Source: an uncultured Thermoanaerobaculia bacterium (lineage in GTDB: Bacteria; Acidobacteriota; Thermoanaerobaculia; Multivoradales; DATKCC01). From it: DNA of 36,271 nt. Below the pieces are notes generated by a model, which was not told the origin of the DNA, made no database searches, and was given only the letters and a program-made list of their open reading frames with translations. The translations under genes and the position numbers were made by a program. Every line of letters starts with the position of its first letter. Position 1 is the first letter of the stretch. Location: NCBI GenBank assembly GCA_964539125.1, contig CAZIIB010000002.1, positions 1 to 36,271 of the forward strand, read 5' to 3'. Below, piece by piece: positions 2,227 through 35,213 of the stretch.

Positions 2227-2227
2227 G

Positions 2228-8712
<6,485 letters not shown>

Positions 8713-8716
<4 letters not shown>

Positions 8717-11700
8717 GCGACACGACCGTACACGACCCGCGCGAGGGACTGGACGTCGCGATCGTCGGGATGGCCTGCCGGTTCCCCGGCGCCGAGACAC
8801 TCGAGACGTTCTGGAGCAACCTGCGCGACGGCGTCGAGTCGATCCGCTCGTTCAGCGACGAGGAGCTGGTCGCCCTCGGGGTCGATCCTCGGGCGCTGGA
8901 GGATCCGGCCTTCGTCAAGGCGGGATCGATCCTGACCGACGTCGACCTCTTCGATGCCGCCTTCTTCGGCTACTCGCCGCGGGAGGCCAGCCTCCTGGAC
9001 CCCCAGCACCGGGTCTTTCTGGAGTGCGCCTGGGAGGCCCTCGAGCGGGCCGGGTACGACGCCGAGCGGTTCGGCGGGATCGTGGGGGTCTATGCCGGCA
9101 CCAGCCTGAGCACCTACCTGCTCTTCAACCTGCTGCTCAGCCCCTCCCTGGCCCACGCCGAGAACAACTTCCCGGTCATGGTGAGCAACGACAAGGACTT
9201 CCTCTGCACCCGGGTGTCCTACAACTTCAACCTGGACGGTCCCAGCCTCGACGTCCAGACCGGCTGCTCCACCTCCCTGGTGGCCGCGCACCTGGCGTGT
9301 CAGGGCTTGCTCACCTACCAGGTGGACATGGCCCTGGCCGGTGGCGTCTCGGTGCAGGTTCCCCAGCGCACGGGCTACTACTTCCAACCGGGCGGGATCA
9401 CCTCGCCCGACGGCCACTGCCGGGCTTTCGACGCCCGCGCCGAGGGGACGATCTTCGGCAGCGGCGTGGGGGTCGTGGTGCTCAAGCGGTTGGCGGACGC
9501 CCTCGCTGACGGCGACGCCATCCACGCGGTCATCAAGGGCTCCGCCGTCAACAACGATGGCTCGCGCAAGATCGGCTACACCGCGCCGGGCCTCGAAGGG
9601 CAGCGGCGGGTGATCGAGCTGGCCCAGGCGGTCGCCGGGGTCGAGGCGGAGAGCATCGGCTACGTGGAGGCCCACGGCACCGCCACGGCCCTGGGAGACC
9701 CGGTGGAGGTCTCGGCCCTCACCCGGGCTTTCCGGACCCAGACCGAGGCGCGAGGGTTCTGCGCCCTGGGCTCGGTGAAGAGCAACCTCGGTCATCTCGA
9801 CGCCGCCGCCGGCGTCGCCGGGCTGATCAAGACCGTCCTCGCCGTCGAGCACGGGGAGCTTCCGCCGAGCCTCCACTTCGACGAGGCCAACCCCCGGATC
9901 GACTTCGCCGAGAGCCCCTTCTACGTCAACCGGGAGCTCGCGGAGTGGCCCCGGGGAGCGGCGCCGCGGCGGGCCGGGGTGAGCTCCTTCGGCATCGGCG
10001 GCACCAACGCCCACCTCGTGGTCGAGGAGGCGCCCTCCGTCGAGCCCTCGGGGCCGACCCGGGCCCGCCAGTTGCTCCTCCTCTCCGCCAAGACCGCCTC
10101 GGCCCTGGAGTCGGCCACGTCGAACCTGGCGGAGCTCCTCCGGGAGCACCCGGACGTCGACCTGGGCGACGTCGCCTACACCCTCCATGTGGGCCGCCGG
10201 GTCATGAGCCATCGCCGGCTGTGCGTTTGCTCGGGGCGCGAGGACGCCGTGGCGGCCCTCGAGGCGAGGGATCCCCGCCGGGTGATGACCCTCCAGCAGG
10301 AGGCCACCGATCGGCCGGTGGTCTTCATGTTTCCCGGCGGAGGAGCCCAGTACGTCGACATGGCCCGGGGGCTCTACGAGACCGAGGCCCTGTTCCGCGA
10401 GGAGGTCGACGCCCAGGCCGGGATCCTCCGCCGGGACCACGGGATCGAGCTCTTCGACGTCCTCTACCCCGACGCCGAACAGCGCGAGGCGGCCGGCGAG
10501 GCGATGCAGCGGACCTCGGACGGCCTGCCGGCGCTGTTCGTGATCGAGCACGCCCTGGCCCGACTCTGGATGTCGTGGGGCATCGCGCCCCGGGCGATGA
10601 TCGGCCACAGCCTCGGCGAGTACGTGGCGGCCTGCCTGGCGGGGGTGTTCTCGCCGGAGACGGCGCTGGCGCTGGTGGTGCTCCGGGCCCGCTTGTTCGA
10701 CGAGCTGCCGGCGGGAGGGATGCTCAGCCTGCCGCTGGCCGCGGCCGAGGTCACGAGGCTGCTGGACGAGCGGCTGTCGCTGGCGGCGATCAACGGCCCG
10801 GCGCAATGTGTGGTCTCCGGACCCACCGAGGCGATCGACGAGCTGGCCGGCCGACTCGCCGCCCAGGAGATCGAGTGTCGCCGTATCAAGATCGAGGTGG
10901 CGGCCCACTCGCGGTCGGTGGACCTCATCATCGATCGGTTCCGCGAGTTCGTGGCCACCGTGGAGCTGCGGCCGCCGGAGATCCCCTACCTGTCCAACGT
11001 CACCGGGGGGTGGATGACGGCCGAGGACGCGGTCGATCCCGGCTACTGGGCGCGGCACCTGCGCGAGACGGTGCGCTTCAGCGACGGCGTCGCCGAGCTC
11101 CTGCGCGAGCCCAGCCGGATCCTTCTCGAGGTGGGGCCGGGCCAGGGGCTCACCACCCTGGCACGGGCGCAGTCCGGCCGCGCCGCGGAGAGCAGCGTCT
11201 TCGCCTCGGTGCGCCATCCCTACGACCCGCAGCCCGACGACGCCCATCTCCTCACCACCCTGGGCCGGCTCTGGCTGGCCGGAGCGCGGGTGGACTGGGG
11301 CGGGTTCTACGCCGCCGAGCGCCGCCGGCGCGTGGTCCTTCCGACCTACCCCTTCGAGCGCCGGCGCTTCTGGATCGATCCGCCGGCCGCGGGGGCGACG
11401 GGGCGCGCCGGCCGCGGGGGCACGCTCGAGAAGCTGCGCAACGTCGACGACTGGTTCTACGTCCCCTCCTGGCGCCGCACCCTCGGCGCCGCCCTCCCGC
11501 CCGCGCCGGCCTCGCCCGACGCCCCGGACCTCTGGCTCGTGTTGCGGGACGACGGCGCGCTGGCCCGGGGCTTCGCCGAGCGGGCCAGACGGGAGGGTCA
11601 CCAGGTGGTCGAGGTGAGCCCCGGCGAGGGCTTCGAGGAGGTGGGGGAGGGAGCCTTCACGGTGGAGCCGGGATCCCGCGGCGACTACCGGCGGCTCCTC

Positions 11701-13386
11701 GAGGAGCTGGCGACGCGCTCCCTCCGGCCCCGGGTGATCGTCCACCTCTGGAGCCTGCCCGCGGGGCCCGCCTGCCCCGACGGCTACCGGGCCTTCGCGG
11801 CGGCCCAGGAGCACGGCTTCTTCAGCCTCCTCGCCCTCGCCCAGGCGATGGGCGAGGGTGACGGCGAGGGCGAGACGGAGCCGACGCGGCTCTGGGTCGT
11901 CACCGGCGACCTCCAGGAGGTGGAGAGCGGCGACCGGTCGCGGCCCGAGCAGGCGACGATCTCCGGCCTCTGCAAGGTCATCCCGCAGGAGGTCCCGCAC
12001 CTCGTCTGCCACACCGTCGACGTGGCGGTTCCGGAGGCCGGGAGCGTCGAGATCGACCGCCTGGCGGAGCGCCTGGTCGCGGAGATCGGCGCCGAAGGGC
12101 CTGACCGGACGCTCGCCTACCGCGGCGAGGAGCGCTGGGTCCAGGCCTGGGAACCGACGCGAGCGAGCGAGCGAGCGGCGCTCCGGGAGCTGCGCCACAA
12201 GGGTGTCTACCTCCTCCTCGGCGGGTTGGGCCGGGTGGGGATGGCCATCGCCGGCCACCTGGCACGCACCGCGGCCGCCCGCCTGGTCCTGACGAGCCGC
12301 TCCGGGCTGCCCGAGCGGTCCGAGTGGGAACGCCTCCTCGGCCGTCCCGGCGAGCCGCACCCCCTGGCCCCCAAGATCCGGGCGCTCCAGGAGCTGGAGC
12401 GCGCCGGCGCGGAGGTCCTCGTGCTACGGGCGGACGTCGCCGACGAGCGCCGCATGCGGGCCGTGCTGGAGAGCGTCGACGAGACCTTCGGAGGGCTTCA
12501 CGGCGTGATCCACGCGGCGGGCTTCGCCGGCGAGAGCGCCCTGAGCTTCCTCCCGGAGACCGACCGCTCGGCCTGCGACCTTCACTTCCAGGCCAAGGCC
12601 AAGGGGCTCTACGTCCTGGACCGCGTGCTGGCGGACCGGGAGCTCGACTTCTTCCTGCTCTGCTCCTCCAACGCGTCGGTCCTGGGCGGGCTCGGGTCGG
12701 CGGCGTACGCGGCGGCCAGCTCCTTCATGGACGCCTTCGCCGTCAGCCACCGGAGGGAGGGGGGCGGGCCCTGGATCAGCGCCAACTGGGACGGCTGGCT
12801 GAGCGCGGACCAGGACCGGCTGAGCGCGACGTTCCGCACCAGCATCGACCGCTACGCCATGGACCCCGGCGAGAGCGTAGCGGCCTTCGAGCGAGTGGTC
12901 ACCCGATTCCCGGCGGGCCAGGTCGTGGTCTCCACCGGCGACCTGACGAGCCGGATCGACCTGTGGGTGCGGGGCGAGGGCCTGGGCTGGAGCGAGGAGC
13001 CCGGAGCGGAGGAGCGGCCGGCGGTCCTGCATCCGCGGGAAGGGATCGAGACCCCCTACGAGCCCCCCGGCGACGAGCTCGAAGCGCTCATCGCCAGGGT
13101 CTGGCAGGAGGCCCTCGGCATCGAGCAGCTCGGCATCCACGACAACTTCTTCGACCTGGGGGGCAACTCTCTCATCGGGCTGCGGGTGGTCTCCCGGCTC
13201 CGTCGGGAGCTGGGGCGAGAGATCCAGGTGGTCAGCCTGTTCGAGGGGCCCACGGTGAGCGCCCTGGCCAAGCTGTTGCGGGCGGCGCCGGGCGAGACGC
13301 CGGTCTTCGAGGAGAGCCAGGACCGCGGCGAGCAGCGCAGGATGCGGCGGGAAGGCAAGAGACGAGCGAGCGTGGCCGATGAATGA
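8713..13386 (+). CDS. Type I PKS module: KS-AT-KR-T
   Basis: The real start is ATG 8713, giving an ATGA overlap with the upstream TGA at 8714-8716, with GGGAGG 11 nt upstream. The listed ORF start at 4852 is only an open-frame extension. 1557 aa. KS: DVQTGCSTSLVAAH, EAHGTATALGDPVE, KSNLGHLDAAAG. AT: GHSLGEYVAA. KR: GVYLLLGGLGRVG..HGVIHAAG..SAAYAAAS. T domain: FFDLGGNSLIGLRV. Confidence 0.95.
8746..10032 (+). other. KS domain (Cys-His-His triad intact)
   Basis: aa ~12-440, with GCSTS, EAHGTAT and NLGHLD. Confidence 0.9.
10309..11277 (+). other. AT domain with divergent motifs
   Basis: aa ~533-855. FPGGGAQY replaces FPGQGAQY. The active-site GHSLGE is intact. The specificity-motif position reads VAAH (nt 10897-10908) rather than HAFH or YASH. 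Confidence 0.8.
11446..12972 (+). other. KR domain (structural plus catalytic subdomains)
   Basis: aa ~912-1420. WFYVPSW..VIVHLWSL structural part, Rossmann motif GGLGRVGMAIAGHLA, catalytic region CSSNASVLGGLGSAAYAAAS (the usual YAAAN Asn is Ser here). Confidence 0.8.
13060..13278 (+). other. Carrier (T) domain, PCP-like signature
   Basis: aa ~1450-1522: ELEALIARVWQEALGIEQLGIHDNFFDLGGNSLIGL. Confidence 0.85.
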
Positions 13387-16270
13387 GCCGTCGAGCGGGA
13401 CCGGGATCGCGATCATCGGAATGGCCGGGCGCTTTCCGGGGGCCCGGAGCGTGGACGAGCTGTGGCGCAACCTCGCGGCGGGGGAGGAGTCGATCCGGGC
13501 GCTCAGCGACGAGGAGCTGGCGGCCGGAGGGGTGGAGCCGGACCTCCTGGCCGATCCCCGCTTCGTCAAGGCCGCGGCGGTTCCCGACGGCGTGGACCTG
13601 TTCGACGCCGCGTTCTTCGGCATGACCGCGAGGGAGGCGGAGCTCGTCGATCCGCAGCACCGGGTTCTTCTCGAGACCGCCTGGCAGGCGCTGGAGGACG
13701 CGGGCTACGCGGCGGGCTCCTGCCCCGGCGCCGTCGGCGTCTATGCCGGGGCCACCATCAACACCTATCTGCTGTTCAACCTCCGGGGTAATCGCGAGGT
13801 CGTCAGGTCTCTCGACCTGCCGCAGCTCAACATCGCCAACGGCCGGGACTTCCTGGCCACCCGGGTGTCGTACAAGCTCGACCTCAAGGGCCCCAGCCAC
13901 CTGGTGCAGAGCGCGTGCTCGACCTCCCTCGTGGCGGTGCACGTGGCCGCGCAGAGCCTCTACGACGGGCAGTGCGACATGGCCCTGGCGGGCGGCGTCT
14001 CGGTCAACGTCAAGCTGATGCACGGCTACCGCCACGCCGAGGGTGGCCTGACCTCCCCCGACGGGCACTGCCGGCCCTTCGACGCCCTCGCGGCGGGGAC
14101 CGTCTTCGGCGGCGGCGCCGGAGTCGTGGTGCTCAAGCCGCTGGATCGGGCGCTGGCCGACGGCGACACGATCCGCGCCGTCCTCAGGGGGTCGGCGGTC
14201 AACAACGACGGAGCCGCCAAGGTGGGCTTCACGGCGCCGAGCGTCGAGGGCCAGGCGAAGGTGATCACCGAGGCGCTGGCCGATGCCGGTCTCGAGCCCG
14301 CGGCGATCAGCTACGTGGAGACCCACGGCACGGGCACCCCCCTGGGCGACCCCATCGAGGTCCAGGCCCTGAAACGGGCGTGGGGGGCGCGGGGAGCCGG
14401 CAGGCACACGTGCGCCCTCGGCTCGCTGAAAGCGAACATCGGGCATCTCGACGCCGCGGCCGGGGTCACCAGCCTGATCAAGACGGTTCTCGCCCTCGAG
14501 CACCGCCAGATCCCGCCGAGCCTCCACTTCGAGCAGCCGAACCCGGAGCTCGCCCTGGACGACAGCCCGTTCTTCGTCAACGCGCGCCTCACCGAATGGG
14601 AGCGGGGCCCGAGCCCGCGGCGGGCGGGGGTGAGCGCCTTCGGCGTCGGCGGCACGAACGCCCACGTCGTGGTCGAGGAAGCGCCGGAGCTCGAGGCGTC
14701 CGGGCCGTCGCGATCCTGCCAGCTCCTGGTCCTGTCGGCGTGCACCGCCACCGCGCTCGCGGCGCAGGAGGCCGGCCTGGCCGACCACCTGAAACGCCTG
14801 CCGGCCGCGAGTCTCGCCGACGTCGCCTACACGCTGGCCGTCGGACGCCGGCCGTTCGAGCACCGGCGGGCTCTGGTCGCGGGTAGCGCGCGGGAGGCGG
14901 TCACGATGCTCGAAGGCGGCGAGCCGGAGCGCAAGCCCGGCGGCCGGGCCGGGGACGCCGAGACCCCGGTCGTCTTCCTGTTCCCCGGCGCGAGCGCCCG
15001 GCACGCCGGCGCCGGCGGCGAGCTCTACGGCCACGAGGCGGTCTTCCGCAAGGGGCTGGACGCCTGCTCCGAGGTCGCCCGGCGTCGCCTCGGCCGGGAC
15101 CTGCCGGCGGTGCTCTTCGCCGCCGGCGGAGCGGCCTCTTCGCCGGTGGGCGAGGTGGAGGCCGACTCGCTGGAGCGAGCGGCGAGCTTCGCCCTGGAGC
15201 ACGCCCTCGCCGGGCTCTGGATGTCCTGGGGGGTCCGGCCCGCGGCGGTGATCGGCTACGGCACCGGTGAGCTGGTGGCGGCCTGCCTGGCCGGCGTCCT
15301 GACCCTCGACGACGCCCTGGCGCTGGCAGCGGCCCCGGTCACGGATTCCGCCGGCCGCCCGGAGGACCCCCGGGTCGGCCCGGCTCGGATTCCCTGGATC
15401 TCGAGCGTCACCGGTGCCCGGGTCACCGAGCCGCTCGCCGGCGAGCCCGGGTACTGGACCGCCCGGGAGCGGGACGGGTCGCGGCTCGACGACGGGATCG
15501 CGGAGCTCCTGGGTACGGCCGACCGGATCTTCCTGGAGGTCGGCTGGGGAGACGCCCTGGCGAGTCGCGTCGCGGCCCACGAGGCGTTCCGGCCCGGGCG
15601 CGTCGTGCTCTCGTCGCTGGCGGGGAGAGTGGACACCCGCACGGAGCCGGCGGCTCTCTTGGGGACGCTGGGCCGGCTCTGGCTCGCCGGGGTGCCGGTG
15701 GACTGGCATGGGCTCTACGCGGGCGAGCGCCGCCGCCGCATTCCTCTTCCCACCTACCCGTTCGAGCGCAAGCGCTACTGGATCGAGCCGACGCCGGAGG
15801 CCCATCGAGAGGCGGACGTGCCGGCCGCCGCAGGCCACGCCGAAGACGGCGGGGGGGCCCGGTCCGACGAAGAGGCGCCCCTCGCGCCGGCTCGCCATCC
15901 GCGACCCGACCTCATGGTGCCGTACGCGCCCCCCTCGACACCTCTCGAACGGCGTCTCGCCGAGGTCTGGCAGAGCGCCCTCGGGCTCGAGGTGGTGGGC
16001 ATCGACGACGGCTTCTTCGAGCTGGGCGGGGACAGCCTGGTGGCGGTCCAGGTGATGGACCAGCTCTCGGCGGAGCTCGGGAGAGCGATCCCCGCGGTCA
16101 GCCTGTACGAGGAGCTCACCGTCCGTGCCCTGGCGGAGCTCCTGACCGCCGAGGAGGACGCGCCGGCCCCGGAGCCCGGCGGAGCGGGAGAGAGGGAAGG
16201 CTGGACCCAGCGGCGGAAGGAGTTCCAGGAACGAGCGCGGCTGCGCAGAACGGAGAAGAGTCGGTCATGA
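13379..16270 (+). CDS. Type I PKS module: KS-AT0(degenerate)-T
   Basis: 963 aa. ATG 13379 overlaps the upstream stop at 13384-13386 by 8 nt. KS: QSACSTSLVAVH, ETHGTGTPLGDPIE, KANIGHLDAAAG. The AT-like region has GYGTG in place of GHSxG and is shortened. T domain: FFELGGDSLVAVQV. There is no KR, DH or ER. Confidence 0.95.
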   Translation: MNEPSSGTGIAIIGMAGRFPGARSVDELWRNLAAGEESIRALSDEELAAGGVEPDLLADPRFVKAAAVPDGVDLFDAAFFGMTAREAELVDPQHRVLLETAWQALEDAGYAAGSCPGAVGVYAGATINTYLLFNLRGNREVVRSLDLPQLNIANGRDFLATRVSYKLDLKGPSHLVQSACSTSLVAVHVAAQSLYDGQCDMALAGGVSVNVKLMHGYRHAEGGLTSPDGHCRPFDALAAGTVFGGGAGVVVLKPLDRALADGDTIRAVLRGSAVNNDGAAKVGFTAPSVEGQAKVITEALADAGLEPAAISYVETHGTGTPLGDPIEVQALKRAWGARGAGRHTCALGSLKANIGHLDAAAGVTSLIKTVLALEHRQIPPSLHFEQPNPELALDDSPFFVNARLTEWERGPSPRRAGVSAFGVGGTNAHVVVEEAPELEASGPSRSCQLLVLSACTATALAAQEAGLADHLKRLPAASLADVAYTLAVGRRPFEHRRALVAGSAREAVTMLEGGEPERKPGGRAGDAETPVVFLFPGASARHAGAGGELYGHEAVFRKGLDACSEVARRRLGRDLPAVLFAAGGAASSPVGEVEADSLERAASFALEHALAGLWMSWGVRPAAVIGYGTGELVAACLAGVLTLDDALALAAAPVTDSAGRPEDPRVGPARIPWISSVTGARVTEPLAGEPGYWTARERDGSRLDDGIAELLGTADRIFLEVGWGDALASRVAAHEAFRPGRVVLSSLAGRVDTRTEPAALLGTLGRLWLAGVPVDWHGLYAGERRRRIPLPTYPFERKRYWIEPTPEAHREADVPAAAGHAEDGGGARSDEEAPLAPARHPRPDLMVPYAPPSTPLERRLAEVWQSALGLEVVGIDDGFFELGGDSLVAVQVMDQLSAELGRAIPAVSLYEELTVRALAELLTAEEDAPAPEPGGAGEREGWTQRRKEFQERARLRRTEKSRS
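13400..14686 (+). other. KS domain (Cys-His-His triad intact)
   Basis: aa ~8-436, with ACSTS, THGTGT and NIGHLD. Confidence 0.9.
14963..15703 (+). other. Degenerate acyltransferase remnant (AT0)
   Basis: aa ~529-775. FPGASARH replaces FPGQGAQY. The nucleophile elbow reads G-Y-G-T-G (nt 15254-15268), so the catalytic Ser position is Gly. About 85 aa are missing between the elbow and the IPWISSVTG segment compared with the three sister modules, which removes the HAFH-bearing small subdomain. Confidence 0.8.
15932..16144 (+). other. Carrier (T) domain
   Basis: aa ~852-922: PLERRLAEVWQSALGLEVVGIDDGFFELGGDSLVAVQV. Confidence 0.85.
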
Positions 16271-19200
16271 CCCGCGAGCGGAACGGATCGGAGGTCGCGA
16301 TCATCGGCATGTCCTGCCGGTTTCCGGGGGCGCCGGGCGTCGACGCCTTCTGGGAGAACCTCCGCGGAGGGGTCGAGTCCATCACCTTCCTGCGCGACGA
16401 CGAGATCGAGGTCTCGAACCTCGAGCCCTCCGCCGTGGGCAGCCCGAGCTACGTCAAGGCGGCCTCGGTCCTCGAAGGGGTGGAGCTGTTCGACGCCGGC
16501 TTCTTCGGCGTCACTCCGAAGGAAGCCCTGGTGATGGATCCGCAGCACCGCCTGTTCCTCGAGTGCGCCTGGGAGGCGCTGGAGCACGCGGGCCACGAGC
16601 CCGACGCCTTCCCGGGCCCCGTCGGGGTCTTCGCCGGCGCACGCACCGACACCTACCTCCTGAACCTGTTCGCCGACCGCAGGCGCTTCGAGAGCCTGGG
16701 CGCCTTCCAGGTGGGTCTCGGCAACGACCTCGGCTTCCTCAGCACGCGGGTCTCCCACAAGCTCGACCTCAAGGGGCCGAGCTGCTCGGTCCACACCGCC
16801 TGCTCGACCGCTCTGGTGGCGGTCCACCTGGCGAGCCAGAGCCTGCTGACCGGCGAGTGCGACCTGGCTCTGGCCGGAGGCGTTGCGGTGAACGTGCCGC
16901 AGCGCACCGGCTACCTCTATCAGCCGGGGGGCATCGCCTCCCCCGACGGGCACTGCCGCACGTTCGACGCCAAGGCGGCGGGAACCATCTTCGGCAGCGG
17001 CGTAGGCGTCGTGGTGCTCCGGCGGCTGGTGGACGCCGAGGAGGACGGCGACCTCATCCACGCCGTGATCAAGGGCTCGTTCGTCAACAACGACGGCTCC
17101 TCCAAGGCCAGCTTCACGGCGCCGAGCGTTCGCGGGCAGGCCGAGGCCATCTCCGAGGCCCTCGCCGCCGGCGAGGTGGATCCGGCATCGGTCTCCTACG
17201 TGGAGGCCCACGGCACGGCGACGGAGCTCGGCGACGCCATCGAGATCCGCGCGCTGCGCAGAGCCTTCGGCCTCGACGGCCGAGAGGGCTACCGCTGCGC
17301 CATCGGCTCGGTCAAGACCAATTTCGGCCACCTCGACGCCGCGGCGGGCATCGCCGGGCTGATCAAGACCGCCCTGATGCTCGAGCACCGGGAGCTCGTT
17401 CCGAGCCTGCACTTCGTCACTCCCAACCCGCGGATCGAGTTCGACGGCGGCCCCTTCTACGTCAACACCGAGAACGCCGAGTGGCGCAACGGCGAGGGCC
17501 CGCGGCGGGCGGGAGTGAGCTCCTTCGGCGTCGGGGGCACCAACGTCCACGTGGTTCTCGAGGAAGCCCCGGAGCGGCCGCCGTCGGAGGGCTCGCGCCC
17601 GTGCGCGCTCCTGACGCTGTCGGCGAGGAGCAGCGAGGCCCTCGACAGGGCGACCGCCGACCTCCACGCCTTTCTGGAGGCGAATCCGGGGGCACTTCTC
17701 GCCGACGTCGCGTACACGTTGGCGGTAGGCCGCAAGGGCTTCACCCACCGGCGGACCCTGGCCTCCAGGGACCTGGCGGCGGCGGCCGAGGCCCTGGAGG
17801 CCTCCGATCGCCGGCGGGTCTTCACCGACCAGTGGGAAGGTGGCGAGCCCTCCGTCTGCTTCCTGTTCCCGGGACAGGGCGCCCAGTACGTGGGCATGGC
17901 CGGCGAGCTGTACCGGCACGAGGAGAGCTTCCGGGAGGACCTGGAGCTGTGCTGCGAGATCCTCCGGCCGCATCTCGACCTCGACCTGCGGGCGGTCCTC
18001 TACCCGGACCCGTCGGACGCCGAGGCGGCCGGCGAGCGGCTGGCCCGGACCGCCGTCGCCCAGGCAGCCCTGTTCGTCGTGGAGTACGCGCTGGCGCGGC
18101 TCTGGATGCGCTGGGGCGTTCGGCCGAGCGCCTTTCTCGGCCACAGCGTCGGCGAGTTCGTGGCGGCCTGCCTGGCCGGCGTCTTCTCCCTGGAGGAGGG
18201 GCTCACCCTGGTGGCGGAGCGCGGCCGCATGATGGACCGGCTGCCGGAGGGCGCCATGCTGGCGGTACCCCTGGGCGAGGCGGACCTCGCGCCGTTGCTC
18301 GTACCGGATCTCGAACTGGCGGCGGTCAACGGCCCGACGATGTGCGTGGCTTCGGGCACGGTCGAGGCCGTGGCGCGGCTGGAGGAGGCGCTGGCGAGCC
18401 GGCGCCTGCCCAGCCGCCGACTGGCGACCTCCCACGCCTTCCACTCGGCGCTGGTGGAGCCGGTGGTCGAGACGTTCACGGCGCGGGTGGCGGAGATCGG
18501 CCTCCAGGCGCCGGAGATGCGCTACGTCTCCAGTGTCACCGGTACCTGGGCCACCGCCGGCCAGGCCACCGACCCGGCGTACTGGGGGCGCCAGCTCCGG
18601 CACACGGTGCGCTTCTCCCAGGGCGTCGGGACGCTCCTCCAGGACGGCGTCCAGGTTCTGTTGGAGGTGGGGCCCGGCCGGGCCCTCGGACAGCTCGCGA
18701 AGCGGGACCCGGCGCTCGCCTCTGGGCACACCATTCTGGCCTCCCTCGGCGACGAGCGGGACGCGGGCCGGGAGACCGAGCCGCTGCTGCGGGCGCTGGG
18801 CCGCCTCTGGAACGTGGGGGTGGCGGTCGACTGGCACGCCTTCTACGCCGGGGAGCGGCGCCAGCGGCTGCCCTTGCCGACCTACCCCTTCGAGCGTCGG
18901 CGCTTCTGGGTCGAGGCGCGCGAGCCCGATCCGTCCGAGGTCGGGGCCGCCACGGGCAAGCGGAGAAACCTCGCGGAGTGGTTCCACCTCCCGTCGTGGC
19001 GGCGGACGATGGCGCCCCGTGCGCCCGGCGCCGAAGAGCTCTCCGAGGAGCCGCGTTGCTGGTGGCTGCTCCTGGACGACGAGGGCGTCGGCGAGGCCCT
19101 GGCCGCCCGCCTCCGCGAAGGGGGGCAGGAGGTGGTCGCCGTCTCCATGGGGGAGGGTTTCGAGCCGCTCGGCGAGGGCGCCTTCCGGGTGTCCCCCGAC

Positions 19201-21753
19201 CGGAGCGAGGATCTCGAGCTGCTGGTGGAGTCCCTGCGCCCGGCGCAGCAGTCCCCGGCGGTGGTCGTCCATCTCTGGAGCCTCACCCCCGCCGGCGAGG
19301 CGCGGGAGGGCGAGGCGCGCCTCGACGAAGAGCTCCGCCGGGGCCTCCATAGCCTCTTTCCCCTGGCTCGTGCCCTGCGGCGCCTGCCGCCGGGCGCGGC
19401 AACCGACCTCTGGGTGGTTTCGGACGGCTTGCAGGCGGTGGAGAGCCGGGACCGGACCATCCCCGAGAAGGCGACCCTCCTGGGCGCGGCGAAGGTGATG
19501 CCCCAGGAGATCGAGAGCCTGACCTGCAGGGTTCTCGACACGGACGCGGGCGCGGCGGACGGCGCAGGGGCCGGCCGCCTGGCGGAGCGGATCCTCGCCG
19601 AGGTCTGGGGAGCGAGCCCCGACGCGGAGATCGCCCTCCGCGGACCGCAGCGATGGGTGCGTGCCTTCGAGCCGGCGCGCCTGGAAGGGGACGCCCCGCC
19701 GCGCAGAGCGCTGCGCACGGGCGGTGTCTACCTGATCACCGGCGGTCTCGGCGGCGTTGGGATCCGTCTCGCAAGGTACCTGGCGGAGACGTTCCAGGCG
19801 AAGCTGGTCCTCACCGGCCGCTCGGAGCTTCCCCCGGCGGAGCGCTGGGACGCCTGGTTGGAGGCCCACGACCCGGACGACGAGCTCGCCGTGAAGATCC
19901 GGCGGGTCCGGGAGCTCGAGGAGGCGGGCGCGGAGATCCTGGTGCTGGCCGCCGACGCGGCGGACGAGGACCAGATGCGGGCCGTGCTGCGCGAGGCGGA
20001 GGCCCGCTTCGGGCGGCTCGATGGCGTGCTGCACGCCGCGGGGACCACGGGCGGCGATTCCCTCTACCGGCCCATGGCCGAGATGGGGCGCGAGGAGGCC
20101 GGCGAGCAGTTCCGCTCCAAGGTCCACGGCGTGTACGTGCTCGAGCGCATCCTGGAGGGCCGGGCGCCCGACTTCTGCCTCCTGTTCTCGTCGATGGCCG
20201 CGGTCCTGGGCGGCATCGGGTACGCCGCCTACAGCGCCGCCAACGGCTTCATGGACGCCTTCGCCCTCGGCCGGCGGGACCGGGAGGGCCCGGCGTGGCT
20301 CAGCGCCGACTGGGATCCCTGGCCCGAGGAGACCAAGAAGCTCGCCGGGGTCCGGACCAGCGTCGATCGCTACGCCATGAGCGAGGACGAGGCCGCCGAG
20401 GCGTTTCGGCGGGTGGTGTGTCTCGCCGAGCCGGGCCAGGTCGTGGTGGCGACGGGCGACCTGCCGACGCGTTGGGACCTGTGGATCCGCCGCCAGTTCG
20501 CAGCGGAGGAGGAGGGCGACCTCGCGGCGGGCGAGGATCGCTCCAGCCAGGCGCGGCCGGAGATGAAGACCGCCTTCGTCGCGCCGCGCGACGAGCTCGA
20601 GCGGAGCATCGCGGTCATCTGGCAGGGCGTGCTCGGGATCCGCGAGGTCGGTGTCGAGGACAACTTCTTCGACCTCGGAGGGCACTCGCTGCTCATGATC
20701 ACGGTTCAGGGCAAGCTGCGGGAGCTCATCCAGGTCGACCTGCCCATGGTCGACCTGTTCAAGTACCCGACGATCGCCGCCCTGGCGGAGGCGCTGCGGC
20801 GGGACCGGGGCGACGTCCTCCTGTTCCAGCAGATCGACGACCGGGCGCGGCGCCAGGCCGAGGCGATCAACCGCCAGCGGCCGGGGCGGACCGGGGGCAG
20901 CGCCGAGCCGGGGGCCAGCGCCCCGGAGGCCGCGGACGCCGAGGGCGGCCGGGAGGCGATCCTCGAGGCGCTGGGCGAGATCGTCGGTGGCGGACCGTCG
21001 GGCGACGGGTGGGGGCTCGGTGACGACCGTGAGGGACATCTCGCCGACGAGGACCTGGCGGCGTTCGCCGGCGAGCTGGTGAGCTCCTTGGAGCCCGTCG
21101 CGGAGAGCGTCCTCTACTACCCGCATCCCTTCAACCGGGGCGGGTTCGTCGTCGTCCTCCCGGACGAAGGGGTGGACCTCCTGGAGCGCCTGGTGTCCGC
21201 CTACGCCGGGGCGCCCCCCGACGTCATGGTCACGGTCCTGCGCCGGTCCGAGCTGGCCGAGCTTTCGTACCCCGGCATGTTCGTCCCCACCGACGTCAAC
21301 CCGAGGGTCCACCTGGCGCTCTGGCTCAAGCACAAGGGGAGCGTTTTGTTCGGCGCCGACCTCCGGGAGGAGATCCCCGAGCCCGAAACGGATCCCGGCC
21401 TGCTCCTGGAGGCTCACCTGGCCGGCTGCGCCCTCTCCCTGCGCTCCGCCGTCCTCGAACGGCTGTTGGAAGGCAAGTACCTGGCCCTGGTACGCGAGCT
21501 GGACCGCCAGGCGAGATACCTGATGGCGACGGCGCTGCGGGCGCGCGACGAGTGGGACGTCGACCTGGAGACCCTGCCGGAGCGCTTCGCTCGGGTGTTC
21601 GCCGACGCGGCGCTCCGCGACGCCTTCGCCGGCGTCGCCGCCGTCCGGGAGCGGATGGAGAGCTCGCCGGACGCCGAGTCCCGTGACCTCGCCCTCGAAG
21701 CGGTCTGGTCGGTGGATCGCTTCGTGCGGCGGTTGAGGAGCCAGGCCCGATGA
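16267..21753 (+). CDS. Type I PKS module with an extra C-terminal domain: KS-AT-KR-T-X (X = nucleotidyltransferase-fold-like)
   Basis: 1828 aa. ATG 16267 forms an ATGA overlap with the upstream stop. KS: HTACSTALVAVH, EAHGTATELGDAIE, KTNFGHLDAAAG. AT: GHSVGEFVAA and SHAFHS (malonyl-type). KR: GVYLITGGLGGVG..HAAG..GYAAYSAAN. T domain: FFDLGGHSLLMITV. A ~320-aa tail follows that is not a TE, R or C domain. Confidence 0.95.
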   Translation: MTRERNGSEVAIIGMSCRFPGAPGVDAFWENLRGGVESITFLRDDEIEVSNLEPSAVGSPSYVKAASVLEGVELFDAGFFGVTPKEALVMDPQHRLFLECAWEALEHAGHEPDAFPGPVGVFAGARTDTYLLNLFADRRRFESLGAFQVGLGNDLGFLSTRVSHKLDLKGPSCSVHTACSTALVAVHLASQSLLTGECDLALAGGVAVNVPQRTGYLYQPGGIASPDGHCRTFDAKAAGTIFGSGVGVVVLRRLVDAEEDGDLIHAVIKGSFVNNDGSSKASFTAPSVRGQAEAISEALAAGEVDPASVSYVEAHGTATELGDAIEIRALRRAFGLDGREGYRCAIGSVKTNFGHLDAAAGIAGLIKTALMLEHRELVPSLHFVTPNPRIEFDGGPFYVNTENAEWRNGEGPRRAGVSSFGVGGTNVHVVLEEAPERPPSEGSRPCALLTLSARSSEALDRATADLHAFLEANPGALLADVAYTLAVGRKGFTHRRTLASRDLAAAAEALEASDRRRVFTDQWEGGEPSVCFLFPGQGAQYVGMAGELYRHEESFREDLELCCEILRPHLDLDLRAVLYPDPSDAEAAGERLARTAVAQAALFVVEYALARLWMRWGVRPSAFLGHSVGEFVAACLAGVFSLEEGLTLVAERGRMMDRLPEGAMLAVPLGEADLAPLLVPDLELAAVNGPTMCVASGTVEAVARLEEALASRRLPSRRLATSHAFHSALVEPVVETFTARVAEIGLQAPEMRYVSSVTGTWATAGQATDPAYWGRQLRHTVRFSQGVGTLLQDGVQVLLEVGPGRALGQLAKRDPALASGHTILASLGDERDAGRETEPLLRALGRLWNVGVAVDWHAFYAGERRQRLPLPTYPFERRRFWVEAREPDPSEVGAATGKRRNLAEWFHLPSWRRTMAPRAPGAEELSEEPRCWWLLLDDEGVGEALAARLREGGQEVVAVSMGEGFEPLGEGAFRVSPDRSEDLELLVESLRPAQQSPAVVVHLWSLTPAGEAREGEARLDEELRRGLHSLFPLARALRRLPPGAATDLWVVSDGLQAVESRDRTIPEKATLLGAAKVMPQEIESLTCRVLDTDAGAADGAGAGRLAERILAEVWGASPDAEIALRGPQRWVRAFEPARLEGDAPPRRALRTGGVYLITGGLGGVGIRLARYLAETFQAKLVLTGRSELPPAERWDAWLEAHDPDDELAVKIRRVRELEEAGAEILVLAADAADEDQMRAVLREAEARFGRLDGVLHAAGTTGGDSLYRPMAEMGREEAGEQFRSKVHGVYVLERILEGRAPDFCLLFSSMAAVLGGIGYAAYSAANGFMDAFALGRRDREGPAWLSADWDPWPEETKKLAGVRTSVDRYAMSEDEAAEAFRRVVCLAEPGQVVVATGDLPTRWDLWIRRQFAAEEEGDLAAGEDRSSQARPEMKTAFVAPRDELERSIAVIWQGVLGIREVGVEDNFFDLGGHSLLMITVQGKLRELIQVDLPMVDLFKYPTIAALAEALRRDRGDVLLFQQIDDRARRQAEAINRQRPGRTGGSAEPGASAPEAADAEGGREAILEALGEIVGGGPSGDGWGLGDDREGHLADEDLAAFAGELVSSLEPVAESVLYYPHPFNRGGFVVVLPDEGVDLLERLVSAYAGAPPDVMVTVLRRSELAELSYPGMFVPTDVNPRVHLALWLKHKGSVLFGADLREEIPEPETDPGLLLEAHLAGCALSLRSAVLERLLEGKYLALVRELDRQARYLMATALRARDEWDVDLETLPERFARVFADAALRDAFAGVAAVRERMESSPDAESRDLALEAVWSVDRFVRRLRSQAR
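16288..17568 (+). other. KS domain
   Basis: aa ~8-434, triad intact. Confidence 0.9.
17851..18831 (+). other. AT domain, malonyl-CoA-type motifs
   Basis: aa ~529-855, with FPGQGAQY, GHSVGE and HAFH. Confidence 0.85.
18973..20481 (+). other. KR domain
   Basis: aa ~903-1405. WFHLPSW..VVVHLWSL structural part, then GGLGGVGIRLARYLA, then SSMAAVLGGIGYAAYSAAN. Confidence 0.85.
20572..20796 (+). other. Carrier (T) domain, PCP-like
   Basis: aa ~1436-1510: FVAPRDELERSIAVIWQGVLGIREVGVEDNFFDLGGHSLL. Confidence 0.85.
21034..21750 (+). other. C-terminal domain X: degenerate AadA/ANT-like nucleotidyltransferase-fold domain, paralogous to the next gene
   Basis: aa ~1590-1828. By-eye alignment with the downstream 300-aa protein: LRRSELAELSYPGMF..GSVLFGADLREEI against LSRDELSALHLSPFY..RTAFGEDLLSEI, and LLLEAHLAGCALSLRSAV against TYFFEARHAAHFHLARFL. 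The G-S...D-x-D catalytic motif is absent; the equivalent stretch reads LYYPHPFNRGGFVVVLPDE. Confidence 0.5.
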
Positions 21754-22652
21754 CGGTCACGATCGCGGACTACGACGTCGCCCTGGAGCGCTTCCTGGAA
21801 ACCCTGGGCCGGATCGGGGCCGGCCTCCAGAGCGTCGTCCTCCACGGCTCCATGGCGTGCGGCACGGTCAAGCCGGGCTGGAGCGACGTGATGGACGCCC
21901 ACGTGGTCCTGGGCGACGAGGTGTTCGAGGATCGGGAGACCTACCTCGCCGCCCTGGCGGTGATGCTGGACGCCTGCCAGGAGCTGGAGGCCTCCGGCCT
22001 CCCCTTCCACCCCTTCGGCTACCTGAGCCGGGACGAGCTCTCCGCCCTCCACCTCTCGCCGTTCTACACCTTCCCCTTCGAGCCGTACTCGCGGACGGCG
22101 TTCGGCGAGGACCTGCTCTCGGAGATCCGCCAGGGGCCGGCGAGCCGCGAGCTCGCCCGTACCTACTTCTTCGAGGCGCGTCATGCGGCCCACTTCCATC
22201 TCGCCAGGTTCCTGGGGAAGCCGGAGCTCACCGACGCCGAGCGCGCGCAGCTCATCACCGTCCTGCTCTCGATCAACAAGTCCCTGGTCATGGCCTGTGC
22301 GGCGCTGGGCGTCGACCTCGTCGACATCCGGAAGCTCGACATCGTGGCGCAGCTCGAGACTCTGGTCCCCGGGCTCGACGCCTCGGTCATCGGCCGGATC
22401 GAGGACCTGCGGGGCGCCCTGGAGGTGGCCCCGGAGACCGCGCGACCCGCCCGGAAGGCGCGGGGGAGCCTGAGCGAGGAGGGAGCGAGGCGCAGCGAAG
22501 AGGCCCGGGAGGTCGCCTGGCAGGCCCTGCGCTTCGTCGAGGCGCTCCACGACGAGATCGTCCGCCGCCGACGCGACGAGGCGACGGTCTGCTCCGAGGC
22601 CGTGCCCGCGGCTCCCACCCACGGCGGACAGATGCGCGAGGGGAAGGGCTGA
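21750..22652 (+). CDS. Nucleotidyltransferase-fold protein, AadA / ANT(3'')-like (atypical metal-binding motif)
   Basis: 300 aa. ATG 21750 forms an ATGA overlap with the PKS stop, with GAGGAG 9 nt upstream. The N terminus VVLHGSMACGTVKPGWSDVMDAHVVL (nt 21846-21896) resembles the aminoglycoside adenylyltransferase motif LYGSxxxGGLKPxSDIDLLV, but the two Asp are spaced D-x-x-D rather than D-x-D. The downstream helical half (FGEDLLSEI..ARHAAHFHLARFL) resembles the AadA C-terminal domain. GC3 codon bias supports this frame. Confidence 0.6.
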   Translation: MTVTIADYDVALERFLETLGRIGAGLQSVVLHGSMACGTVKPGWSDVMDAHVVLGDEVFEDRETYLAALAVMLDACQELEASGLPFHPFGYLSRDELSALHLSPFYTFPFEPYSRTAFGEDLLSEIRQGPASRELARTYFFEARHAAHFHLARFLGKPELTDAERAQLITVLLSINKSLVMACAALGVDLVDIRKLDIVAQLETLVPGLDASVIGRIEDLRGALEVAPETARPARKARGSLSEEGARRSEEAREVAWQALRFVEALHDEIVRRRRDEATVCSEAVPAAPTHGGQMREGKG

Positions 22653-22656: not shown

Positions 22657-23955
22657 ATGCGCGCCTCGCCACAGGGCGGCGGCCGGGAGACGGGGGCCGG
22701 GAGGCGCTCACCGGAGCGGCCTCTTCACGTGATGGCCCTGTCCCTCGAGTACACGCCCAAGCTCAGCGGCGGCATGGGCACCCAGGTCTACGAGCTCTCG
22801 CGGGGCCTCGCCGGCGCCGGCCACCGGGTCTCCGTGCTGGCCTACACGTCGGGAGAGCCGCAGGAGCTGCGACGGCCCAACGAGACCGTGCACCTGATCT
22901 CTCCCTCCGTCGGCGCCGGCTCGACCCGCGCGCGCCCGTCCATGGCCGAGGGGATCCTGGAGTTCAACGAGGCGCTGATCGCTCGCGCCGCTCCCCTCAT
23001 CGACGAGGCGCGGCAGCGCCCCGACGTCCTCCACTTCCACAACTGGGCGACCTATCCCGCGGCGAAGGCCTTGGGAGAGCGCTTCGGCATCCCCGGCTTC
23101 GGCACCGTCCACTTCATCTCGGAGCCCATCGAGCGATGGTGGGGCCAGACCCCCGACCCCGAGATCGTGGAGCAGGAGCGTCGGATGTTCGCCGAGGCGA
23201 AGGCCCTGGTGGCGGTGAGCCACTCCCTGCGCTCGGTCGTGCGCTCGGCGTACGCCCTGAACGGCGCCTCCTTCGGCGTCGTGCACAACGGCCTGGATCC
23301 GACGCCGTTCGCCTCCCTCGCCGGTCGCGGGGCCGATCGGGAGCGGCTGCGCCGGGCGGTCGCGGCGGCCGACGAGAAGCTCGTCCTCTTCGCCGGGCGC
23401 CTCAACCTGCAGAAGGGTGTTCCGGCGCTCCTGGCGTCGGCGGCCCGGGTGCTCGAAGAGTACCCGAGGGCCCGCTACCTGATGGTGGGGGAGCCCGACT
23501 CCCGCGACTTCGGCGCCACCCTCGAGCGGACCCTGGACGAGCTTCCCGTCCTGCGGCGGCGCGTGACGTGGATGGGCAAGCTGCCGCGCCGGCAGCTCGC
23601 CGCCCTCTACCAGGTCGCCGACCTGGCAGTGGTCCCCTCGATCTACGAGCCGTTCGGGTACGCGGCGATCGAGGCGATGGCGGCGGCGGTGCCCCTCGTG
23701 GCGAGCCGCGTGGGCGGGCTGGCGGAGATCGTGGAGGACGGTGTCAGCGGGCTGCTGGTGCCCGTCGAGGAACCGCCCTCCGCGGCGCACACCGTGGACG
23801 TCGATGCCCTCGCCGCGGCGCAGCTCGAGCTGCTTCGCGACGCGGGACGGGCCCAGGAGGTGGGCCGGGCGGCACGGCGGCGGGCAATCCAGGACTTTTC
23901 TGTCGAGCGCATGGTCGCCTCGACGACGGAGGCCTATCTCGATGCAGTCGCATGA
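22657..23955 (+). CDS. GT-B glycosyltransferase, family GT4-like (Glycos_transf_1 type)
   Basis: 432 aa. N-terminal MALSLEYTPKLSGGMGTQVYELSRGLAGAGHRV. C-terminal nucleotide-sugar-binding region LLFAGRLNLQKGV..VVPSIYEPFGYAAIEAMAAAVPLVASRVGGLAEIVEDGVSGLLV (E-x7-E motif). ATG 22657 lies 4 nt after the upstream stop and has a GGGGAAGGG Shine-Dalgarno sequence. ATG 22732 (M26) is an alternative start that would remove a low-complexity 25-aa extension. Confidence 0.85.
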   Translation: MRASPQGGGRETGAGRRSPERPLHVMALSLEYTPKLSGGMGTQVYELSRGLAGAGHRVSVLAYTSGEPQELRRPNETVHLISPSVGAGSTRARPSMAEGILEFNEALIARAAPLIDEARQRPDVLHFHNWATYPAAKALGERFGIPGFGTVHFISEPIERWWGQTPDPEIVEQERRMFAEAKALVAVSHSLRSVVRSAYALNGASFGVVHNGLDPTPFASLAGRGADRERLRRAVAAADEKLVLFAGRLNLQKGVPALLASAARVLEEYPRARYLMVGEPDSRDFGATLERTLDELPVLRRRVTWMGKLPRRQLAALYQVADLAVVPSIYEPFGYAAIEAMAAAVPLVASRVGGLAEIVEDGVSGLLVPVEEPPSAAHTVDVDALAAAQLELLRDAGRAQEVGRAARRRAIQDFSVERMVASTTEAYLDAVA

Positions 23956-31428: not shown

Positions 31429-32835
31429 GTGCGCCGAGGCGACGGAGCGGAGGCGACGGCCCGGTCACCGTGGGGCCTCCTGGCAGATCGCGGGTCCCGG
31501 ACCTTCGTCTCGCTCTGGGCGGCCCAGGTCGTCTCCCAGCTCGGCTCGGGCCTCTCCGGCTTCGCCCTGGGCGTCTGGATCTACCAGGACACCGGCTCGG
31601 TGACGCAGTTCGCCGCCATGACGCTGTCGCTGATGCTTCCGGGCGTCCTCGCCACGCCGCTGGCCGGCATGTTCAGCGACCGGTGGGATCGCCGCCGAAC
31701 GGTCATCGTCTGTGAGGCGACCAGGTCCCTGGGCACGTTGGCCATCGCGGTCCTGCTCCTCACCGGGACGTTCAACCTGTGGAATCTCTGCCTGACGCTG
31801 GCCCTGAGCTCCACCTTCACCGCCTTCAAGGAGGTGGCGGCCAATGCCATGGTGGTGATGCTCATCCCGAAGGAGCAGTTCGGGCGGGCGAGCGGCCTGC
31901 TCCAGGCGGGGCGCCCCGCGACCCGCATCCTCTCGCCCATGATCGCGGCGGTCCTCCTGGTGTGGATCGGGATCGTGGGCGTCGTCCTCATCGACTTCGT
32001 CACCTTCCTGGCGCCCATCGCGGTCCTTCTGTTCGCCGACGTCCCGGCCCCCCCGGCGAGCGACGAGGGAGCGGTGGGAAAGGGATCCGCCTGGCGCGAG
32101 CTGATCACGGGCTGGACGTTCATCCGCAGCCGCCGAGGCGTCCTGGCTCTCCTCGGGTACTTCGCCATCCTCGATCTCACCATGGGTTTCGCCTACGCCC
32201 TCTATCGCCCGATGCTCCTGAGCTTCACCTCGGTGGAGGTGGTGGGCACCGTGAGCTCCGTGGGGGCGAGCGGGGTGCTCCTCGGCAGCATCGTCCTGGT
32301 GGCGTGGGGCGGGCCGCAGCGGCGGGTGCCGGCGATTCTCTTCTTCGGGGTGCTCTATGGCCTGGGGCTGATCGCCATCGGGCTGCGGCCCTCGGCGTGG
32401 CTCGTGGGGAGCGCGCTGTTCGTGCTGATCTTCGGCATCCCCTTGAGCCGGGGGTTCATCCGGATCATCTGGATGCGCAAGACCCCGGCGGATCTCCAGG
32501 GCCGCGTGTTCGCGGTCTGGACCGTCATCTCGCGTGTGACGCTCCTCCTCGCCTTCGCCCTGTCCGGGCCGCTTGCGGACCGGGTGTTCGAGCCGCTCCT
32601 CGTCGCGGGAGGCCCGCTGGCGGCGACGGTGGGACGGTGGATCGGCGTCGGGCCGGGCCGGGGCATGGGCCTCATGTACATCGGTCTCGGGGTGATCTCC
32701 CTGGTGGCGACCGGCCTCGCCTCCCTCCACCGCGGCCTGCGCCGACTGGAAGAGGATCTGCCCGACGCCATCGAGGATGCGGCCCCGCCGGACTCCGGCC
32801 TCCCGATCTCGGGGCGGGTGGCGACCCCCCAGTGA
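31429..32835 (+). CDS. MFS transporter (DHA3 / EntS / macrolide-efflux-like), probable exporter
   Basis: 468 aa with about 12 hydrophobic spans. N terminus FVSLWAAQVVSQLGSGLSGFALGVWIY..LAGMFSDRWDRRR is typical of this MFS subfamily. GTG 31429 is preceded by GGAGG with a 5-nt spacer. Confidence 0.85.
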   Translation: MRRGDGAEATARSPWGLLADRGSRTFVSLWAAQVVSQLGSGLSGFALGVWIYQDTGSVTQFAAMTLSLMLPGVLATPLAGMFSDRWDRRRTVIVCEATRSLGTLAIAVLLLTGTFNLWNLCLTLALSSTFTAFKEVAANAMVVMLIPKEQFGRASGLLQAGRPATRILSPMIAAVLLVWIGIVGVVLIDFVTFLAPIAVLLFADVPAPPASDEGAVGKGSAWRELITGWTFIRSRRGVLALLGYFAILDLTMGFAYALYRPMLLSFTSVEVVGTVSSVGASGVLLGSIVLVAWGGPQRRVPAILFFGVLYGLGLIAIGLRPSAWLVGSALFVLIFGIPLSRGFIRIIWMRKTPADLQGRVFAVWTVISRVTLLLAFALSGPLADRVFEPLLVAGGPLAATVGRWIGVGPGRGMGLMYIGLGVISLVATGLASLHRGLRRLEEDLPDAIEDAAPPDSGLPISGRVATPQ

Positions 32836-32875
32836 CCCGGGCGGTCCGCGATCGGCGGAGATCGGGCGTGGCGTG

Positions 32876-33706: not shown

Positions 33707-33721
33707 CGGCGCCGGCCGTCA
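33704..33721. terminator. Stop-to-stop hairpin between convergent genes (possible bidirectional terminator)
   Basis: TGACGGC-GCCG-GCCGTCA is a perfect 7-bp stem with a 4-nt loop. The outer triplets are the TGA stops of the + strand sulfotransferase (33704-33706) and the - strand halogenase (33719-33721). There is no U-tract on either side. Confidence 0.35.
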
Positions 33722-35089: not shown

Positions 35090-35213
35090 CTGCTGGGCGT
35101 CTCGTCCTTTGGGTCGCTCGCCGGACCTCGTCTCGAACCCTGGCTGAGCGTCGCGGGAGCCTCCAGGCAACCGGGCCGGGGCCTTCAAACTTCATAGTGC
35201 ATGCGAAACAGAT

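Follow-up and report, generated by a model that had tools for sequence, protein, structure and literature searches.

How a polyketide synthase (PKS) module can go on working once the acyltransferase (AT) that should load it has decayed is the question raised by the second of four PKS proteins, PKS2, encoded in a 36,271-nt stretch (the window) of contig CAZIIB010000002.1 from an uncultured Thermoanaerobaculia bacterium. A first-pass annotation of this DNA had described PKS2 as a module in which a degenerate AT (AT0) lies between an intact ketosynthase (KS) and an intact carrier (T) domain. We found that this AT is catalytically dead, and that the KS and T domains are as constrained as those of the neighbouring modules. 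Judging from the sequence, PKS2 is probably a working, condensation-competent module that is malonylated in trans and leaves a beta-keto group.

The AT of PKS2 has lost its catalytic residues and its small subdomain

The AT remnant spans positions 14963-15703 (aa 529-775). As previously noted, all four PKS proteins are collinear up to the AT: Pfam places the KS starts at aa 10, 14, 9 and 11 and the AT starts at aa 532, 537, 532 and 534, and the nucleophile elbows lie at aa 631-636 (PKS1), 626-631 (PKS2), 625-630 (PKS3) and 628-633 (PKS4). Both motif changes described in the first-pass annotation were confirmed by four-way alignment and by the codons. The N-terminal AT motif of PKS2 reads FLFPGASARHA (aa 533-543, nt 14975-15007), with FPGASARH (14981-15004) at the site where PKS3 and PKS4 carry FPGQGAQY. 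The elbow reads GYGTGE (nt 15254-15271, codons GGC TAC GGC ACC GGT GAG), and Gly628 (15260-15262) occupies the position of the nucleophilic Ser found in the GHS(V/I)GE motif of PKS3 and PKS4.

The earlier estimate that about 85 aa had been deleted, including the small subdomain with its HAFH motif, is close to the net gap of 81 aa (39 + 30 + 12) in the four-way alignment. The distance from the elbow to the post-AT linker is 161 residues in PKS2 versus 242 in 75 of 123 relatives. We also built an AT profile from intact relatives and ran it with filters off over the six frames of the window. In PKS2, only positions 4-129 and 225-361 of this profile found a match; 14 residues stand for the 95 lost positions, and the score is 275 bits compared with 531-547 bits for the three intact ATs. 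The lost positions (130-224) hold the carboxylate-binding Arg of the RGRLM motif, the whole small subdomain and HAFH. Likewise, the Pfam AT match in PKS2 is confined to positions 1-113 of the 319 in the profile and scores 53 bits (168-193 bits in its neighbours), and solved ATs (ZmaA, ClbI, CurL and DEBS) align to PKS2 in two stretches with around 100 target residues unmatched between them. What remains is approximately 225 residues of the AT large subdomain.

A catalytic Ser-His dyad elsewhere in the AT region had been suggested as something to look for; the alignment shows none, and direct reading of the translation from aa 520 to 810 gave no alternative G-x-S-x-G motif, so the reading of a dead AT stands. 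Measured against a competent malonyl-CoA:acyl carrier protein (ACP) transacylase-type AT (Acyl_transf_1/FabD-like), AT0 is catalytically dead, having lost the Gln of GQG (GQGxQ), the elbow Ser, the Arg, the His and the ferredoxin-like small subdomain.

In an AlphaFold model of PKS2 (pLDDT 79, pTM 0.80), AT0 folds mostly confidently as an alpha/beta core, with a pLDDT mostly of 84-95 in its C-terminal part (aa 669-775). A modelled coil at aa 652-683, least confident at aa 656-659, takes the place of the small subdomain. The best structural matches are the KS-AT didomains of ClbI, CurL, Lsd14 and DEBS, with further matches to the trans-AT KS OzmQ and to ClbC. The core remnant, with the KS-AT linker before it and the post-AT linker after it, may have been retained because it serves as a structural spacer.

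The KS and T domains of PKS2 are conserved

The KS motifs ACSTS, ETHGTGT and NIGH of PKS2 are all intact, and the Cys-His-His triad recorded in the first-pass annotation is present (C180, H316 and H356). These three residues, together with the carrier Ser886, are invariant among 47 KS-AT(0)-T relatives, AT-impaired forms included.

As a reference for constraint we used a collinear cluster on a metagenomic contig of 233 kb (L001/L086), whose proteins share 65-72% identity with their counterparts in the window, and compared NG86 dN/dS estimates as relative values. The PKS2 KS is 79% identical to its ortholog with a dN/dS of 0.26, and the KSs of PKS1 and PKS3 are 82% identical with values of 0.26-0.28; for the PKS2 T domain we obtained 72% and 0.27. 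The KS and T domains of PKS2 thus show a level of constraint equal to that of the neighbouring modules. The AT remnant (54% identity, dN/dS 0.63) is evolving at roughly double the rate of the intact ATs of PKS1 and PKS3 (74%, 0.29-0.31). Constraint is also relaxed in the KS-AT linker (0.64), and the post-AT linker is the best-conserved segment of PKS2 outside the KS (75% identity).

The statement that PKS2 has lost the ketoreductase (KR) region, leaving the post-AT linker close to the T domain, proved correct in its description: some 50 disordered residues separate the PTYPFERKRYW motif from the T domain. Beyond this domain, the modelled C-terminal basic helix is probably a docking element towards PKS3. 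At the DNA level, the start of PKS2 overlaps the stop of PKS1, and its stop overlaps the start of PKS3 (ATGA).

AT decay is graded and repeated at the same position of a cluster family

PKS2 had been regarded as a decayed copy of its neighbours, a view that we could not maintain. Its KS shares 58-60% identity with those of PKS1, PKS3 and PKS4, versus 66-69% with those of KS-AT-T orthologs that occupy the second position in other clusters and 78% with those of two orthologs with an AT0 (P0002 and P0003). These values indicate that PKS2 is the ortholog of a conserved module. The corresponding cassette, FAAL-T-C-A(MOx)-T followed by KS-AT-KR-T and KS-AT-T, occurs in Corallococcus sp. CA054B, in a Pyrinomonadaceae metagenome-assembled genome and on many metagenomic contigs, and at least three other clusters keep collinear orthologs of PKS2. 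The nearest named relatives of PKS2 belong to Myxococcota and Acidobacteriota. An exact-sequence look-up of PKS2 returned no record, and a profile search of genome contigs with the alignment of the T-domain tail returned only distant carrier domains (best identity 55%).

Within this family, the AT of the second module is found in four states. It is intact in P0005, P0007, P0025 and P0043; it is full length with only the Ser-to-Gly change in P0011 and P0013 (both GHGLGE, P0013 also with HAFL); it is excised with the elbow Ser kept in P0113 (GHSIGE); and it is both excised and changed from Ser to Gly in the window (GYGTGE), P0002 (GAGAGE), P0003 (GEGGGE) and P0016 (GRGIGE). Since the clusters of the family variously carry the substitution, the deletion or both, the AT is dispensable in the second-module line. 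The impaired forms are scattered across the KS and AT trees. All impaired cases with visible context (the window, P0002, P0016, P0011 and P0013) belong to extended lines, and in the three-gene version of Corallococcus the AT is intact. We considered a rule by which the AT decays only where further malonyl-type ATs follow, and rejected it because extended lines with an intact AT exist (L003 and L089) and few contexts were seen.

The closest relative with extra domains is a metagenomic protein of 1415 aa (P0003; 65% identical to PKS2) with the order KS-AT0-KR0-T. Its KR is devoid of the Rossmann glycine motif and of the catalytic Lys, Tyr and Asn, so that one conserved module contains two dead domains. 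This degenerate KR in a sister protein suggests that a KR was probably lost in the PKS2 lineage, as the first-pass annotation implied. However, the intact second-position orthologs lack a KR anyway, being KS-AT-T already, and an unreduced keto group would therefore be the normal output of this position.

AT remnants of the same type are also found in a KS-AT0-KR-T protein of Nostoc calcicola (L010), in an Actinomycetota KS-AT0-T protein, in a deltaproteobacterial A-T-KS-AT0 protein and in a Planctomycetaceae KS-AT0-T-ST protein. Among the 148 best-matching representatives of clusters at 50% identity, 24 contain such a remnant, mostly beside full ATs in the same protein. The remnants have similar gap boundaries, and their elbow is mostly G-x-G-x-G. 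In the AT tree, which carries no support values, many of them have as neighbour the intact AT of the protein or cluster to which they belong, a pattern that speaks for AT0 having arisen independently several times. Both His are retained in every one of 30 KSs that precede such remnants and the Cys in 28 of them, and two AT0 modules (P0036 and that of Nostoc, L010) carry an intact KR. It is conceivable, although we consider it rather doubtful, that an AT core with Gly for Ser and without its small subdomain is a recurrent, stable endpoint of AT decay, reached independently whenever another AT serves the carrier and kept for the architecture of the KS and linkers or for the docking of a foreign AT. 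If this were true, the family would preserve a series from intact AT through Ser-to-Gly and excision to a ClbC-like stub, that is, a route from cis-AT to trans-acylated modules.

Possible routes for loading PKS2

With a dead AT and a conserved KS and T domain, PKS2 must be either acylated in trans or non-elongating, the two options that had been put forward before; the evidence favours elongation. In the scheme that we prefer, the KS of PKS2 would take the beta-hydroxyacyl chain from PKS1, the T domain would be malonylated in trans by the AT of PKS1, PKS3 or PKS4, by the housekeeping FabD or by an AT outside the window, and the KS would condense the chain with the malonyl-T. As expected from the earlier proposal, the beta-keto group would stay if PKS2 elongates, since there is no KR to reduce it, and the unreduced beta-ketoacyl chain would pass to PKS3. 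The invariant Cys-His-His triad, the intact KRs of some AT0 modules and the malonyl-type AT of same-position orthologs all favour elongation.

Regarding the donor, the AT profile found four AT-like regions in the six frames of the window and no fifth. The odd motifs of the PKS1 AT (Table 1) are conserved in the first PKS of L001-L004 and L006, and the domain is under purifying selection, suggesting that its extender specificity may be unusual. With this profile, neither the window nor the 10 kb upstream of the orthologous cluster on L086 (46 kb together) yielded a free-standing AT similar to ClbG, nor was a hidden AT found in the C-terminal 300 aa of PKS3 or in the open reading frames (ORFs) at 21750-22652 and 33767-35197. 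Upstream of the L086 cluster (2000-10020 of that contig) lie genes for an AMP-ligase, an ACP, a KS, a second and possibly CLF-like KS, an SCP2 protein, a KASIII-like protein, a thiolase-like protein with DUF35 and a PEMT-type methyltransferase. They look like a type-II-like set for a starter unit that has no malonyl transferase of its own, which hints that FabD may already serve the pathway.

Several points weigh against trans loading as we propose it. The sequence does not single out a donor AT, and the case for loading in trans is itself built on sequence. The T domain of PKS2 is nearest to that of PKS1 (57% identity, compared with 43% for PKS3 and 39% for PKS4), so that the malonyl-type ATs of PKS3 and PKS4 are not favoured as donors; we judged carrier similarity too weak a criterion to choose a donor. 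The window begins inside a gene and ends 6.5 kb past PKS4, and an unlinked or more distant AT is possible. The dN/dS values come from one sequence pair in a genome of 72% GC, where only relative values are meaningful, and the value for the remnant fits weak constraint and near-neutral evolution alike. Finally, both trees are neighbour-joining trees without support values, in which long-branch attraction may have misplaced AT0.

Four alternatives to this scheme were considered. The KS and T of PKS2 might only relay the chain from PKS1 to PKS3, in which case the product of a line with AT0 would be two carbons shorter than that of a line whose AT is intact. Non-elongating modules are well known in trans-AT PKSs, PKS2 lacks its own loading domain, and neither the window nor the 10 kb upstream of the ortholog showed a dedicated trans-AT. 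However, a non-elongating KS typically loses the His of HGTGT, and PKS2 has both this His and the Cys. Moreover, the triad is invariant in the AT-impaired relatives and kept in 28 of the 30 KSs mentioned above, related AT0 modules carry an intact KR, which needs a beta-keto substrate, and the PKS2 KS is as constrained as those of its elongating neighbours. We therefore regard a simple relay as unlikely.

Slightly less probable still is the loading of PKS2 by a dedicated free-standing AT whose gene lies outside the window, possibly with an unusual extender from a discrete carrier protein. Colibactin biosynthesis indeed pairs AT-defective modules with the free-standing ClbG (PMC8402462), a discrete ACP and an AMP-ligase are encoded upstream on the orthologous contig, and the window covers only part of the locus. 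On the other hand, no AT-like ORF was seen in the 46 kb searched, and the orthologs with an intact AT carry the malonyl-type HAFH motif, indicating that the ancestral extender was plain malonate.

That PKS2 is a dying module outside the biosynthesis appears very improbable. Its AT is gutted, its sister P0003 has a dead KR, the KS-AT linker and AT0 are relaxed, and at 72% GC long open frames occur by chance, which makes an intact ORF weak evidence. Nevertheless, over about 30% protein divergence the conservation of the KS and T resembles that in the functional neighbours, the catalytic residues are invariant, collinear orthologs persist in other clusters and the genes are translationally coupled. 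Equally improbable is self-malonylation by the AT remnant or the T domain, a reaction reported, and disputed, for some type II ACPs, given the loss of all four catalytic determinants and of the small subdomain that binds the substrate, and given that no other G-x-S-x-G is present.

The gene cluster in the window

The window has a GC content of 72% and contains one plus-strand biosynthetic operon (Table 1).

Table 1. Genes of the window and domains relevant to the loading of PKS2 (positions count from the first letter of the window).
Feature	Position	Strand	Basis or remark
PEP-synthase/rifampicin-phosphotransferase-like gene, 3' part	37-2226	+	729 codons of about 913 aa; cut by window start
FAAL-T-C-A-T protein	2228-8716	+	luciferase-like monooxygenase (aa 1413-1725) interrupts A domain
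PKS1, KS-AT-KR-T	8713-13386	+	
PKS1 AT, full length, candidate trans donor	10321-11217	+	atypical FPGGGAQY, GHSLGE, VAAHS (vs FPGQGAQY, GHSIGE, HAFHS)
PKS2, KS-AT0-T, 963 aa	13379-16270	+	
PKS2 KS domain, aa 10-435	13406-14683	+	Pfam, motifs
PKS2 KS catalytic residues	Cys180 13916-13918; His316 14324-14326; His356 14444-14446	+	motif positions
PKS2 KS-AT linker domain, aa 436-530	14684-14968	+	CurL-like_PKS_C and RhiE-like_linker matches
PKS2 AT0 large subdomain, N-terminal part, aa 531-651	14969-15331	+	AT profile positions 4-129
PKS2 loop replacing Arg motif, small subdomain and HAFH, about aa 652-668	15332-15382	+	profile gap, alignment, model
PKS2 AT0 large subdomain, C-terminal part, aa 669-775	15383-15703	+	AT profile positions 225-361; second aligned stretch vs solved ATs
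PKS2 post-AT linker	15704-15787	+	includes PTYPFERKRYW, aa 791-801, 15749-15781
PKS2 T (carrier) domain, aa 855-926	15941-16156	+	PP-binding match; phosphopantetheine Ser886 at 16034-16036
PKS2 C-terminal basic helix, aa 938-962, RRKEFQERARLRR	16190-16264	+	modelled helix; motif conserved in orthogroup
PKS3, KS-AT-KR-T and about 300 further aa	16267-21753	+	
PKS3 AT, intact malonyl type, candidate trans donor	17860-18756	+	GHSVGE, RGRMM, HAFHS
300-aa ORF after PKS3	21750-22652	+	
GT4 glycosyltransferase	22657-23955	+	
PKS4, KS-AT-KR-DH-T	24029-29704	+	
PKS4 AT, intact malonyl type, candidate trans donor	25628-26524	+	GHSIGE, RGRLM, HAFHS
Enoylreductase-like dehydrogenase, HXXEE protein, MFS exporter, sulfotransferase	downstream of PKS4	+	
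CmlS-like FADH2-dependent halogenase	33719-35188	-	

The FAAL-T-C-A(MOx)-T protein is the conserved first gene product of an apparently uncharacterised cluster family of Myxococcota, Acidobacteriota and many metagenomes, and the phosphoenolpyruvate (PEP)-synthase/rifampicin-phosphotransferase-like gene adjoins it also in the L086 and Pyrinomonadaceae clusters. A literature search for the combination of a FAAL, an A domain interrupted by a monooxygenase (MOx) and single-module PKSs returned only unrelated pathways (myxofacyclines, myxoglucamides and corallorazines).

Neither the C-terminus of PKS3 (20830-21750, plus strand) nor the ORF at 21750-22652 matched a Pfam or NCBIfam family, apart from a weak nucleotidyltransferase hint (E = 0.026), and the C-terminal approximately 300 aa of PKS3 and this 300-aa ORF showed no detectable kinship to each other or to solved structures. 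At the position of the ORF, L001 encodes a single 738-aa protein that includes the GT4 domains, as though the ORF and the GT4 gene had been fused. In PKS4, the KR (aa 1150-1347) precedes the dehydratase (DH, aa 1388-1678), the reverse of the usual modular order.

Further downstream, the ORFs of the MFS transporter (31429-32835, plus strand) and of the sulfotransferase (32777-33706, plus strand) overlap by 59 nt as called, suggesting that the sulfotransferase starts at a later codon. The long plus-strand ORF at 33767-35197 is an antisense shadow of the halogenase gene. We speculate that the beta-keto position that PKS2 leaves could be a target of the halogenase, should this enzyme act on activated methylene or enol carbons.

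Implications

The concept of a module whose AT does not function and which is loaded by another enzyme is already known (ClbC, ClbK and ClbO in colibactin biosynthesis, and M12 of irumamycin), so PKS2 is a real but not a new case. What it adds is the graded, repeated decay of an AT within one cluster family. For product prediction, PKS2 should be counted as a malonate extension without reduction, not as a skipped or broken module, and domain predictors that call an AT present from a partial Pfam match would mislead here. In addition, the family provides natural orthologous pairs of modules with intact, point-inactivated and excised ATs, suited to testing which AT rescues an AT-less carrier and how much of the AT a KS-AT didomain needs for its stability. 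Both questions bear on PKS engineering by AT knock-out and trans-complementation.

Comparison with known systems

Within the family, the protein of Corallococcus sp. CA054B (P0043) resembles PKS2 in its second position, synteny, T domain, C-terminal tail and absence of a KR, and the KS identity is 66-69%. In contrast to PKS2, orthologs of this type have a full-length AT with GHSIGE and HAFHS.

Modules of trans-AT PKSs, such as those with the OzmQ or OzmN KS, are comparable to PKS2 in having a KS without a working cis AT, and in structure 4oqj the KS, linker and post-AT linker superpose well on PKS2 (TM-score normalised to the target, 0.87). In sequence searches, however, trans-AT KS structures match only the post-AT end, and the AT core that PKS2 retains (about 225 residues, 275 bits) sets it apart from a trans-AT module, in which the KS is followed by no AT core but only by the linker or flanking ('AT-docking') subdomain. 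Its nearest relatives are cis-AT modules, unlike those of trans-AT PKSs, and no discrete AT was seen in the locus.

ATs without the Ser in cis-AT lines, as in PKS2, have been described for irumamycin M12, bengamide, desertomycin, conglobatin as well as gephyronic acid (PMC11672594; PMC9301873), and in irumamycin T12 has been proposed to be loaded by AT11 (PMC11672594). By their published descriptions, irumamycin-type ATs are predicted to be inactive for the missing Ser, whereas PKS2 has also lost the small subdomain.

The closest parallel is found in colibactin biosynthesis, in which ClbC, ClbK and ClbO lack functional ATs, ClbI has a cis-AT and ClbG is a free-standing AT (PMC8402462). The hybrid cis/trans-acylated line envisaged in the first-pass annotation fits the architecture of the window, but the idea itself is thus already known, including the AT remnant of ClbC (PMC8402462). 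ClbC-dependent products have been obtained in vitro from ClbN, ClbB, ClbC, ClbH and ClbI with malonyl-CoA, and ClbG is not listed among the components (bioRxiv 10.1101/567248). ClbI, whose AT carries GHSLGE and HAFHS, is also the closest solved structure to PKS2 (40% identity; TM-score normalised to the target, 0.80).

We aligned ClbC and ClbI from the clb island of E. coli CFT073 with PKS2. Like PKS2, ClbC consists of a KS, an AT remnant and a T domain and has no KR. Gly replaces Ser in both elbows (G-A-G-T-G in ClbC, G-Y-G-T-G in PKS2), the small subdomain and HAFH are excised from both, the motif xPRPxLxVP(Y/F) precedes the T domain in both, and both lines also contain cis-AT modules. By contrast, the ClbC remnant has undergone more erosion at its C-terminal side and shows only 23% identity over the aligned region, the clb island encodes ClbG whereas no free-standing AT was seen in the 46 kb searched here, and the host and product of colibactin are unrelated to those of the window cluster. 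With its KS triad, an AT remnant stripped of catalytic residues and a carrier that keeps its Ser, PKS2 has the features of a ClbC-type KS-AT*-T module, and by this analogy it most likely works like ClbC.

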